Shown here: in pieces, positions 9,760 to 19,792 of the stretch
How positions within the stretch are numbered: position 1 is the first letter of the stretch
Layout of the letters: each line of letters starts with the position of its first letter
NCBI RefSeq assembly: GCF_006345805.1
Contig: NW_021823810.1
Span: 1 to 20,905, forward strand
Direction of reading: 5' to 3'
DNA: 20,905 nt
From: Octopus sinensis
Lineage: Eukaryota
Position numbers and translations under genes: made by a program
Notes under the pieces: generated by a model
Told to the model about the DNA's origin: nothing
What the model saw: the letters and a program-made list of their open reading frames with translations, nothing else
Databases searched by the model: none

Positions 9760-9983
9760 ACAATTGCAGCGTGGAAGGTGTTTATAAGCCATTTAAGAAA
9801 CACACAAAACCGTTAGATTCACTTCAACATTTAAATTTAATTTGTCAAAATATTTTCGTCGCTTTGAGACCGCGACCTGTTCACTGACAAAACTTTGTGC
9901 TGTATCTCTGAGAAGATGAAGTGAATCTAACAGTTTTGTGTGTTTCTTAAATGGCTTATAAACACCTTCCACGCTGCAATTGT
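9760..9983. repeat. 67-bp inverted repeat with 90-bp spacer; probable Penelope-like element terminus
   Basis: 9760-9826 and 9917-9983 are reverse complements with 1 mismatch, and the spacer contains the hammerhead variant. The Penelope assignment is inference. Confidence 0.85.
9841..9891 (-). ncRNA. Minimal type I hammerhead variant (G3:C8 core, extra G after A9, palindromic stem III)
   Basis: The minus strand reads UUUGUCA GUGAACA G GUCGC-GGUCUCAAA-GCGAC GAA AAUAUU U UGACAAA. This gives a perfect 7-bp stem I, a 5-bp stem II, a compensatory swap of the C3-G8 pair and a self-complementary AAUAUU. Confidence 0.7.
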
Positions 9984-10146
9984 AGATGTTAAACATTTAT
10001 AAATATAAACTGCTTATGGTAATATAAACTGTTTATTTAAAGGCAGTTATTAATCACTTAATAAACTAAACATACAGGTTTGTGTAACAGGGTTACTTAA
10101 ATACTTCCTATTTGTGTAGGTTTCTAAGTTTGTATGTACTATATAT

Positions 10147-10281
10147 TTGCTTCCTGACCACAAGGATCCGGGTTCAGTCCCACAGCGCGGCACATTGAGT
10201 GAGAGTCTTCTATTATAGCCTCAGACCGACCAAAGCCTTGTGAGTGGATTTAGTGGACGGAAACTGAAAAATGCCCGTCGT
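10147..10281 (+). mobile_element. SINE family A, 5' half
   Basis: GGTTCAGTCCC...CCGACCAAAGCCTTGTGAGTGGATTT...GCCCGTCGT, running into (TCTA)n. Confidence 0.8.
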
Positions 10282-10674
10282 CTATCTATCTATCTATCTA
10301 TCTATCTATCTATCTATCTATCTATCTATCTATCTATCTATCTATCTATCTATCTATCTATCTATATATCTCATCTATTATCATCTATCTGTCTATCTAT
10401 CTATATATCTATCTATATATCTATCGCTCTCTATATATATATATATATTCTGTCTGTCTATCTATCTATCTATCTATCTATCTATTATATATCTATCTAT
10501 CTATCTATCTATCTATCTATCTATCTATCCATCTATCCATCTATATCTATCTATCTATCTATCTATCTATCATCTATCTATCTATCTATCTATCTATCTA
10601 TCTATCTGTCTGTCTGTCTGTCTGTTTGTTTGTCTGTCTGTCTGTGTCTGTCTGTCTGTCTGTCTGTCTGTCTG
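10281..10674. repeat. (TCTA)n grading into (TCTG)n
   Basis: Read directly from the sequence; it accounts for ORFs 10240..10839 and 10271..10687. Confidence 0.96.
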
Positions 10675-10959
10675 CGTAAGTGCGTGATGGCATGCGCACA
10701 CAAAAACATAAAATGGCGACAATTTACCTATCGCACGCTATATATATATAAATATATATATATATATATACGACGAAGTTCAGTATTAATACCAAAAAGT
10801 AATCTTTATCGTCAATATAACATGGATGTTTTGTTGTAACACCGAATACGGCGTTATTAGCATTGAGAGATCATCTCATATAAGCGCTTGGCGCATAAAA
10901 GCACACAGATCGTAGATTCCCCTCTGCTACGGTCTATGTATGACTGTGTATGTGTACTC

Positions 10960-11032
10960 TGTGTGGTGTGTGTGTGTGTGTGTGTGTGTGTGTGTGTGTG
11001 TGTGTGTGTGTGTGTGTGTGTTTGTGTGCGTG
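10960..11032. repeat. (TG)n microsatellite
   Basis: Read directly from the sequence. Confidence 0.95.
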
Positions 11033-11401
11033 TACTTGTGCAGTTATAGTAGTGTGTATGGCTGTTGTGGTGTTCGTAATGGTGGCAGTAATTGCGATTT
11101 CTCGCCATACTACATAAAACATATCCTCAAGTACCTCAAATGATAAAATGATGAAAGCTACTGAACCACTCGAAGCAACACCTGCCGTAACGTTGTCGGA
11201 GCCTATCTCCTAGAAATAGCAGCCAACATCTCAAATCATACAGCAATGTCCTAAATATAGCCATAGATGCACTACGTCAGAATTACATATTTTATAATAT
11301 ACTTCTTGTTACATTATGTCTGAAGGCTCGAAGGATATATAAGGATTATATGATGAAGATATGCTGCATACATACACACACAAACGCACACATACCCACA
11401 A

Positions 11402-11758
11402 TATATATATATATATATATATATATATATATATATATATATATAGTACGTTTAAATATTTGTTGTGCAAGATTTTTATGTGACCATTCCGAAATATAAC
11501 AATGTATATATATATTATATATATATATATATATATATATATGTATGTTGTATGTATGTATGTATGTATGTATGTATATAAATATATGCATATATATGTA
11601 TATATATATGTATATATACATATATATATGTATATATATGTATATATATATGAATATGCATATATACATATATATATATATATGTGTATGTGTGTGTATG
11701 TATATATATGTATGTATGTATGTATGTATGTATGTATGTATGTATGTATGTATGTGTA
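11402..11758. repeat. (TA)n/(TATG)n microsatellite field
   Basis: Read directly from the sequence. Confidence 0.93.
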
Positions 11759-18170: not shown

Positions 18171-18289
18171 TATATATATATATATATATATATATATATA
18201 TACGTGTGTGTGTGTGTGTGTGTGTGTGTGTGTATGTATGTTATATATATATATATATATATATATATATATATATATATTTATATATA
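18171..18289. repeat. (TA)n(TG)n(TA)n, left flank of the ribozyme array
   Basis: Read directly from the sequence. Confidence 0.95.
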
Positions 18290-18401
18290 GAGGGCATTAT
18301 TATATATCATGCCACACGCTAAGAGGGACATTAGTCATTTCTACCAAAAATTTTACTAATCCTACCAATGCAATTCTTCAAAGCAGACATTTAAAAAATT
18401 A

Positions 18402-18448
18402 AGTCTTGTATCACCTGTGATTTCGTAATTACGTACTCATCAGCAACT
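18402..18448 (-). ncRNA. Type I hammerhead ribozyme, copy 1 (degenerate or mis-called)
   Basis: The minus strand reads AGUUG CUGAUGA GUAC GUAA UUAC GAA AUCAC AG GUGAU A CAAGACU. The core is intact, but relative to the other copies 2 nt are missing from the 5' strand of stem I and stem II has one mismatch. Confidence 0.8.
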
Positions 18449-18859
18449 GGTTCTGAACGTATCATAAATAAACGACCTGTCTCGTCGGAGCCCAACAGCC
18501 AACTGCTAAACCAACGACGCACATGGGGAAGTTTACATATAATACATCCGTAAATGGCAGGCTTCTTCGAATTGCACTTCGGGTATGAAAAGTTTTTTCG
18601 GAATAAAATTATTTAACAATTAAGGATAACCTCTTAATAAGGAATCTTAACAAGAAATTATCAGGTAGATAGCGTGAAAAACCTCATAAGAGAAAAAATT
18701 TCGAAAATAATTCTTTCTTATTGAACATATTAATTTATATATAGAGGGCATTATTATACATACATGCCACACGCTAAAAGGGACATTAGTCATTTCTACC
18801 AAAAATTTTACTAATCCTACCAAATGCAATTCTTCAAAGCAAGACATTTAAAAAAATTA

Positions 18860-18908
18860 AGTCTTGTATCACCTGTGATTTCGTACTTACGTACTCATCA
18901 GCAAGACT
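18860..18908 (-). ncRNA. Type I hammerhead ribozyme, copy 2 (intact)
   Basis: The minus strand reads AGUCUUG CUGAUGA GUAC-GUAA-GUAC GAA AUCAC-AG-GUGAU A CAAGACU. This gives a 7-bp stem I, canonical CUGANGA/GAAA core, 4-bp stem II, stem III and an AUA cleavage triplet. The predicted cut is between 18867 and 18866. Confidence 0.93.
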
Positions 18909-19337
18909 GGTTCTGAACGTATCATAAATAAACGACCTGTCTCGTCGGAGCCCAACAGCTAACTGCTAAACCCAACGACGCACATGGGGAAGTTTACATA
19001 TAATACATCCGGTAAATGGCAGGCTTCTTCGAATTGCACTTCGGGTAGGAAAAGTTTTTTCGGAATAAAATTATTTAACAATTAAGTATAACCTCTTAAT
19101 AAGGAATCTTAACAAGAAATTATCAGGTAGATAGCGTGAAAAACCTCATAAGAGAAAACATTTCGAAAATAATTCTTTCTTATTGAACATATTAATTTAT
19201 ATATAGAGGGCATTATTATACATACATGCCACACGCTAAAAGGGACATTAGTCATTTCTACCAAAAATTTTACTAATCCTACCAAATGCAATTCTTCAAA
19301 GCAAGACAGGTCGTTTATTTATGATACGTTCAGAACC

Positions 19338-19386
19338 AGTCTTGCTGATGAGTACGTAAGTACGAAATCACAGGTGATACACGACT
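19338..19386 (+). ncRNA. Type I hammerhead ribozyme, copy 3 (one stem I mismatch), located in the loop of the fold-back
   Basis: AGTCTTG CTGATGA GTACGTAAGTAC GAA ATCACAGGTGAT A CACGACT. The 3' strand of stem I is CACGACT instead of CAAGACT. The predicted cut is after 19379. Confidence 0.88.
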
Positions 19387-19792
19387 TAATTTTTTTAAAT
19401 GTCTTGCTTTGAAGAATTGCATTTGGTAGGATTAGTAAAATTTTTGGTAGAAATGACTAATGCCCCTTTTAGCGTGTGACATGTATGTATGATAATGCCT
19501 CTATTATATTAATATGTTCAATAAGAAAGAATTATTTTCGAAATTTTTTCTCTTATGAGTTTTTCACGCTATCTACCTGATAATTTCTTGTTAAGATTCC
19601 TTATTAAGAGGTTATCCTTAATTGTTAAATAATTTTTTATTCGAAAAAACTTTTCTATCCGAAGTGCAATTCGAAGAAGCCTGCCATTTACCGGATGTAT
19701 TAGATGTAAACTTCCCCATGTGCGTCGTTGGTTTAGCAGTTGGCTGTTGGGCTCCGACGAGACAGTCGTTTATTTATGATACGTTCAGAACC

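Follow-up and report, generated by a model that had tools for sequence, protein, structure and literature searches.

The window analyzed here is a stretch of 20,905 nucleotides (nt) of Octopus sinensis DNA (assembly GCF_006345805.1, contig NW_021823810.1, positions 1 to 20,905, forward strand) that contains two fold-back elements, each with a hammerhead-type motif between its inverted arms. Both elements belong to abundant non-coding repeat families. Each fold-back is probably one insertion of two head-to-head copies of one short non-coding repeat, likely made by a Penelope-like reverse transcriptase (RT)/endonuclease that primed on either side of a break within AT-rich sequence. A preliminary description had reported the geometry common to the two elements and had proposed a common integration mechanism in which the ribozyme-generated 5' end fixes the point where the complementary DNA (cDNA) stops or switches strand. 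The geometry and the common mechanism were borne out; the role assigned to the ribozyme was not.

The arms of element 1 (9760-9826 and 9917-9983) are inverted copies that matched at 66 of 67 positions around a 90-nt loop, as first described. The family 1 unit, U (208 nt), was taken as window 9702-9909 in reverse complement, with u1 at window position 9909; on U, the predicted hammerhead cut is u62|u63, the window arm starts at u84, the short 3' end lies at approximately u150, and the tail spans u151-208. BLAST of U placed the body of the full-length copy (u1-150) on the minus strand at 9760-9909, of which 9760-9826 is the left arm and 9827-9909 is the unique 5' part that makes up most of the loop. 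The tail, which is the 3' end of the full copy, occupies 9702-9759 on the minus strand, and family homology ends at about 9702. It is missing from the inverted copy, and homology beyond the fold-back extends for 58 nt on one side only. The inverted copy (u84-150, also by BLAST of U) is 5'-truncated and tail-less and lies on the plus strand at 9917-9983; a 7-nt junction filler at 9910-9916 separates the two BLAST segments, and similar fillers were seen at other junctions. A three-helix hammerhead fold with a G3-C8 core is present on the minus strand at 9841-9891, flanked within the loop by 25 nt on the 5' side and 14 nt on the 3' side, in agreement with the original description. Its predicted cut is at 9848|9847, 21 nt from the arm.

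Element 2 consists of a minus-strand tandem array (18277-19308, approximately 2.2 monomers) that abuts a plus-strand array (19304-20048, approximately 1.6 monomers). Its monomer has a period of 462 according to the program TRF and measures 455 nt in the window copy; it was numbered with q1 as the first nucleotide 3' of the hammerhead cut. The minus-strand copy comprises q21-455 (18867-19308), q1-455 (18409-18866), and q1-136 (18277-18408); its 5' truncation is at q21, and its 3' end is of the short type. The plus-strand copy comprises q381-455, q1-455 (19380-19834), and q1-212, with the family's usual 5' start and the long type of 3' end. Both copies share a 5-nt microhomology, AGACA, at the junction (19304-19308). 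The innermost inverted arms (19195-19308 and 19400-19513) are 114 nt long and 92% identical, with 91 nt between them, as reported earlier. Within this 91-nt center the predicted cut falls 20 nt ahead of the arm, and the near agreement of 21 and 20 nt in the two elements was confirmed. The insertion is flanked by a (TA)n microsatellite on the left (18171-18289) and by (TA)n on the right (20047-20071), followed by (TG)n. The two elements are unrelated, as had been claimed; the best BLAST match between them had an E value of 0.13 over 15 nt.

We sampled each family at tens of loci in part of the genome, pooling four samplings into 117 distinct loci for family 1 and collecting 43 distinct loci for family 2; BLAST end coordinates at these loci are ambiguous by a few nucleotides. 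The whole 224 nt of element 1 recurs at 84-94% identity (40 scored of 2038 candidates). Family 1 comprised 103 head-to-head pairs and 14 solo copies. The longer copy began at u1-u10 in nearly all of the 103 pairs, and these positions therefore mark the fixed 5' end of the family, whereas the other copy stopped earlier at a variable point. Outer ends were located at approximately u150 or u208, and 88 of 103 pairs had one of each, that is, one tail; the remaining pairs were two-tailed (n = 2), tail-less (n = 4), or had a truncated end (n = 9). Forty-eight of the 103 pairs were inserted at (TA)n. Outside (TA)n, direct repeats of at least 6 nt were found at both outer ends of 30 of 55 pairs, with examples of 8-14 nt; since whole pairs are flanked by these repeats, a pair is a single insertion event. 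Family 1 junctions used microhomology, namely ATCT and T-runs. At loci L134 (C2:40282560) and L175 (C4:99886610), junction fillers of 8-10 nt were the reverse complement of the 5' end of the long copy itself, as though synthesis had reversed direction for a short stretch before joining. Three loci on different contigs (L071, L072, and L073) had an identical structure (u9-208 | u121-152) with identical flanks, and represent either a duplicated segment or assembly redundancy.

The element 2 monomer had 1840 candidates in the genome, and the 43 loci examined consisted of 24 pairs and 19 solo copies. Likewise, one copy of a pair normally reached the usual 5' start and the other stopped earlier at a variable point. 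All 24 pairs had one short 3' end (q100-140) and one long 3' end (q205-265), so that here too the outer ends take two fixed positions, each represented once in a pair, and the tail is one-sided. Of the 43 loci, 42 had (TA)4 no more than 20 nt from an end. Junctions were located in hammerhead stem III at L042, in stem I at L045, and at the palindrome AAAATTTT (q58-65) at L105 and L129. Contigs from four sequencing runs that aligned to element 2 were family fragments without readable joints, starts, or ends. One further locus (L036/L126, C1:112632662-112634369) held a higher-order tandem of family 2 with a q22-92 piece between monomers, which looks like a rearranged unit that was subsequently amplified.

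This anatomy fits published insertions of Penelope-like elements (PLEs). Passages of PMC8557442 and PMC3846280 describe PLE insertions with an inverted 5'-truncated copy, a one-ended tail, and (TA)n targets, and PMC3846280 also describes palindromes at their inverted junctions. An inverted 5'-truncated copy beside the 5' end characterized the pairs at 103 of 117 and 24 of 43 loci, and direct repeats flank whole pairs. Like the complex insertions of endonuclease-positive PLEs, with their pseudo-long terminal repeats (pLTRs), the fold-backs have head-to-head inverted 5'-truncated copies, a one-ended tail, AT-rich or (TA)n targets, variable target duplications, junctions at palindromes or microhomology, and a hammerhead near the 5' end. 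They differ from PLEs in that neither window family encodes an RT or endonuclease; the tails are 58 nt in family 1 and approximately 116-125 nt in family 2, compared to 30-40 nt in published PLEs; and family 1 has no pLTR and consists of one 208-nt unit. The 5' inversions of L1 arise by twin priming, in which two priming events at one target produce an inverted 5' segment; twin priming inverts part of one copy without duplication, whereas the arms observed here are duplicates, each with its own 3' end. A purified PLE protein nicked and extended both strands in vitro, and PLE reverse transcription started at two internal sites whose spacing corresponds to the tail (PMC11167929).

A Penelope-like origin of the fold-backs would involve two minus-strand cDNAs that begin at two internal RT start sites on RNA templates and proceed toward the RNA 5' end, after which their 3' ends would be joined by short complementarity or filler. 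The loop would then be the 5' segment of the longer copy that the shorter copy lacks. Two cDNAs of one family run in the same sense, which restricts base pairing between them to tracts that are palindromic or form inverted repeats; such tracts abound in the hammerhead region. More speculatively, the first finished cDNA might capture the other in mid-synthesis. Because the anatomy fits published PLE insertions and the genome has open reading frames (ORFs) with RT and GIY-YIG domains, we infer that both families are mobilized in trans by a resident PLE. There were 5029 GIY-YIG candidates in the genome, and 147 of 150 scored were matched, all above the Pfam cut-off. [quoted passage not shown] The window itself has no ORF combining RT and GIY-YIG among its 47 listed ORFs, all of which are at most 212 aa.

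The proposal that cleavage sets the breakpoint depends on where shorter copies start. Set A, the first family 1 sample, used the window's own fold-back as query and was biased toward similar arms; starts were at u83-85 in 4 of 29 pairs. A loop-only query, which selects for no particular junction, yielded 14 pairs and 12 solo copies (n = 26). The short copies in these unbiased pairs started at u4, 4, 8, 8, 10, 15, 16, 19, 19, 29, 102, 118, 121, and 121, corresponding to u4-u29 in 10 pairs and u102-u121 in 4, and none of the 14 started near u84 (+22). Two exact patterns applied genome-wide took every family 1 junction in u54-u84 (36 matches, window included) and in approximately u81-u109 (34 matches), and reversed control patterns gave 0 matches. 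Removal of duplicates left 60 junctions over u54-u109. These were spread over the whole range, with 3 at u83-84 and small peaks at u101 (8), u59 (4), u108 (4), and u74 (3), as well as 6 by BLAST coordinates at the ATCT site (u89-93); each of these sites has 1-5 nt in common with the long copy's end. Among 67 family 2 5' ends, 16 were at the usual start (q351-399, approximately 57-105 nt upstream of the cut), 12 at q42-60, and 11 at q1-25, compared to 0.07-0.09 per nt elsewhere. The q1-25 and q42-60 regions contain A/T palindromes and coincide with self-complementary tracts, namely AAAATTTT at q58-65, T7A3 at q11-20, and hammerhead stems III and I. The breakpoints are spread and lack a peak near +20, and the loops across both families were also not near 90 nt; a sharp peak and loops of that size had been named in advance as support for the proposal. 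Nor are the breakpoints uniform, a uniform distribution having been named as the refuting outcome.

These counts make it improbable that hammerhead self-cleavage produces an RNA 5' end that fixes the cDNA stop or strand switch approximately 20 nt past the cut. The 21- and 20-nt distances in the two window elements are what such a process would give, and copies that begin at u63, the first nucleotide past the predicted cut, account for 6 of the 29 biased-set pairs and 4 of 34 pattern matches (2 of them new loci). However, u63 accounted for only 2 of the 60 junctions once set A loci were removed, and u59, u74, and u101, all microhomology sites, each held at least as many; the T at u63 could also be assigned to the long copy's end; and all 12 solo copies of the unbiased set started at u1-u10, never at u63. 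The family 2 5' ends at q1-25, just 3' of the cut, were enriched approximately 3-fold (0.44 per nt versus a mean of 0.15); five of the 11 values were '12', meaning only that the alignment stopped there. In contrast, a peak at +20 was absent: 0 of 14 unbiased and 3 of 60 pattern-defined junctions in family 1, and 2 of 48 pair ends at q19-21 in family 2 (q21 in the window and q19 at L034). The junction string of element 2 in the window occurred once in the genome. In vitro, PLE insertion was equally good with hammerhead mutants, hammerhead cleavage was not needed, and no RNA reads started at the cut (PMC11167929). The +20 rule is refuted, and a breakpoint set by the ribozyme is not supported. 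In both families only 18-45 nt separate the hammerhead from the usual 5' end, and because of this position a short copy that stops approximately 20 nt past the cut leaves a loop of approximately 90 nt that contains the ribozyme. Since the stop point varies across families, the 21/20-nt and 90/91-nt matches are coincidence; the shared geometry follows from a shared, already described integration mode and from ribozymes that sit at similar places close to the 5' end.

An alternative to two independently primed cDNAs is a single cDNA that snaps back at a palindrome and copies itself, the self-priming argued for rotifer PLEs in passages of PMC3846280. It would account for near-symmetric pairs whose junctions lie exactly on natural palindromes (L042, L105 at q57|q55, and L129 at q58|q60) and for the short turn-around fillers at L134 and L175, in which the 5' end is copied in reverse. 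We regard it as unlikely, though less so than cleavage, because the two halves would have the same end if one were copied from the other's cDNA, and in 88 of 103 and in 24 of 24 pairs their 3' ends lay at fixed positions that differed; many junctions also had filler or an overlap of 0-2 nt and no palindrome. The 67-nt inverted arms and small size of element 1 resemble those of a miniature inverted-repeat transposable element (MITE) or a foldback DNA transposon bounded by terminal inverted repeats, and the only strong Rfam matches to element 1 at E ≤ 10 were long-hairpin microRNA models, which we judged to reflect the inverted arms. This possibility was given next to no credence: the inner arm boundary varies by copy (u4-u121), 14 of 117 loci are solo copies without an inverted arm, the ends are unequal owing to the tail, and target duplications range from 6 to 14 nt instead of having a fixed length. 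A MITE or foldback transposon is refuted for element 1 by the variable arms and solo copies. It is very improbable, too, that the fold-backs arose after insertion, by replication fold-back or inverted duplication, or are assembly artefacts. Such structures do trouble assemblies, as a passage of PMC8557442 states, but the same architecture recurs at over 120 loci, which differ in their junctions and have shared target duplications and the one-tail rule.

Several observations nevertheless weigh against a Penelope-like insertion with priming on both sides of a break. No clear target-site duplication surrounds the window's copy of element 1, and that of element 2 cannot be read inside (TA)n. A comparison of five PLE loci revealed no autonomous PLE with similarity to either family. 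Priming on both strands has been demonstrated only in vitro, for a lizard PLE, and the start site of that element was alike on both strands, which alone does not predict a strict one-tail rule (PMC11167929). Finally, the enrichment at q1-25 leaves room for some influence of the ribozyme region on the 5' ends of family 2. The pairs, tails, and targets described above support a common mechanism for the two elements, and that mechanism is already known.

Hammerheads had been proposed in both loops. The claim held for element 2, in which the hammerhead of the 91-nt center (19338-19386, plus strand; one stem I mismatch; predicted cut after 19379) is a canonical type I hammerhead. A second plus-strand hammerhead with perfect stems lies at 19793-19841 (predicted cut after 19834), and another canonical type I motif, recognized by its core and helices, lies in the minus-strand array at 18860-18908. 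All three have the type I features: CUGANGA, GAAA, H17, three helices, and an open stem I. A degenerate hammerhead is located at approximately 18402-18448 in the minus-strand array. The core was intact in 11 of 14 close copies. Position N7 took all four bases among subfamilies (CUGAUGA, CUGAAGA, CUGAGGA, and CUGACGA), stem I had a two-sided change (AGUCUUG/CAAGACU to AAUCUUG/CAAGAUU), and insertions in stem II preserved pairing. As judged from these copies, family 2 variation is confined to N7 and compensated stem positions, and the predicted hammerhead is maintained across subfamilies. The Rfam gathering score was not reached by element 2; the best match, HH9 in a sister copy, scored 17.2 bits versus 52. 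No match to any Rfam model was obtained at the gathering threshold in the whole window, and minimum free energy folding of both loops by themselves was not distinctive (z of -0.4 to -1.8).

In element 1 the fold was present, but its core was not canonical. Stem I (9885-9891/9841-9847) has 7 base pairs (bp), and stem II (9872-9876/9858-9862) has 5 bp, including G10.1-C11.1. The core at 9878-9884 is GUGAACA, with one extra G at 9877; GAA (of GAAA) is at 9855-9857, followed by a palindromic helix III (AAUAUU, 9849-9854) and U17 at 9848. Three helices, G12 A13 A14, A15.1-U16.1, and an H17 other than G were thus all found. The conserved core C3 U4 G5 A6 N7 G8 A9 was not matched, since element 1 has GUGAACA in place of CUGANGA: positions 3 and 8 are swapped and still complementary (G3-C8 for C3-G8). 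Rfam found no hammerhead in element 1 even at E ≤ 10, but the missing match is weak evidence because the ribozyme of element 2 also scores far below the Rfam threshold. We used a relaxed hammerhead descriptor that accepts three Watson-Crick pairs at positions 3 and 8; it was composed after the motif had been seen, which makes it a weaker test. In the 20.9-kb window it matched only the element 1 motif and two element 2 ribozymes, whereas 8.36 Mb of random sequence gave 2 matches, 0 of them with stems as long as those of element 1. In 441 kb of genomic loci the G-C type was confined to family 1 (34 matches). By its sequence, the element 1 motif is a hammerhead-like variant and not a canonical hammerhead.

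All positions of this motif agree with published features of PLE hammerheads except that the 3-8 pair is G-C rather than C-G. Passages of PMC4209133 describe PLE minimal hammerheads with an unpaired nucleotide that separates position 9 from 10.1, with a G10.1-C11.1 pair, and with a helix III of 1-2 bp with a palindromic loop, and element 1 is alike in the unpaired nucleotide at 9/10.1, the G10.1-C11.1 pair, and the short palindromic helix III. Natural covariation of the C3-G8 pair to U3-A8 is known (passages of PMC4209133 and PMC3088659), and element 1 is unlike these covariants in having G3-C8. An engineered C3G/G8C double mutant is reported to have partly restored cleavage (PMC11167929), and our full-text literature search recovered the G3-C8 pair only as an engineered variant (PMC11167929 and the portion of PMC3884650 consulted). 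We tentatively raise the possibility that family 1 carries a hammerhead in which the essential C3-G8 tertiary pair is flipped to G3-C8 and which might still self-cleave, probably as a dimer via the palindromic helix III; such a motif, amplified in a large repeat family with Penelope-type integration, would be the first natural case of a G-C swap at this pair.

Other hammerheads and PLE-related sequences were noted at the sampled loci. Five GIY-YIG matches lie in open frames of exactly 781 aa (C1:207477583, C3:65736423, C6:12733272, C6:12759897, and C19:35627265), which suggests recent activity of a Penelope-like family. A copy of element 1 (L100:1-205) lies approximately 2 kb upstream of an RT/GIY-YIG ORF, probably by chance given the abundance of family 1. 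At E ≤ 1, neither L097 nor L099 had a hammerhead match in Rfam. The descriptor identified a canonical hammerhead at L099:6521 (plus strand; CUGAUGA core, 5-bp stem II, and 6-bp stem I) that adjoins a 775-aa RT/GIY-YIG ORF on the opposite strand. Another family of minimal hammerheads, with a CUGACGA core and stems of 4-5 bp, was present in the flanks of L019, L030, and L052, on the plus strand in each, and further single canonical hammerheads were found at L029, L052, and L131; the genome appears to be rich in hammerheads. Elsewhere in the window, the two longest ORFs sit in simple repeats, and a 220-nt tandem unit (16480-16993, 2.3 repeats, 77% matches) is unrelated to elements 1 and 2.

The fold-back architecture is textbook PLE anatomy and adds little as stated; the G3-C8 hammerhead variant is possibly the sole new item. 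If active, this variant in a high-copy family would be a natural test of the 3-8 tertiary pair. Element 2 resembles metazoan non-LTR (long terminal repeat) retrozymes in its non-coding AT-rich monomer, its short tandem arrays, and a type I hammerhead in each unit, as passages of PMC7229834 describe them, and a 2026 preprint, in the sections available, argues for an origin of metazoan retrozymes from PLE pLTRs. Head-to-head pairs, a one-sided tail, and (TA)n targeting are not mentioned in the retrozyme passages of these two sources. In the portions of the literature consulted, the proposed link between retrozymes and PLEs is argued mainly from distribution and phylogeny, and a retrozyme-like tandem hammerhead repeat with the full PLE insertion signature is structural evidence for it. 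The near-absolute rule of one tail per pair and the position of junctions at self-complementary tracts limit the models that can explain the resolution of two cDNAs by PLEs.

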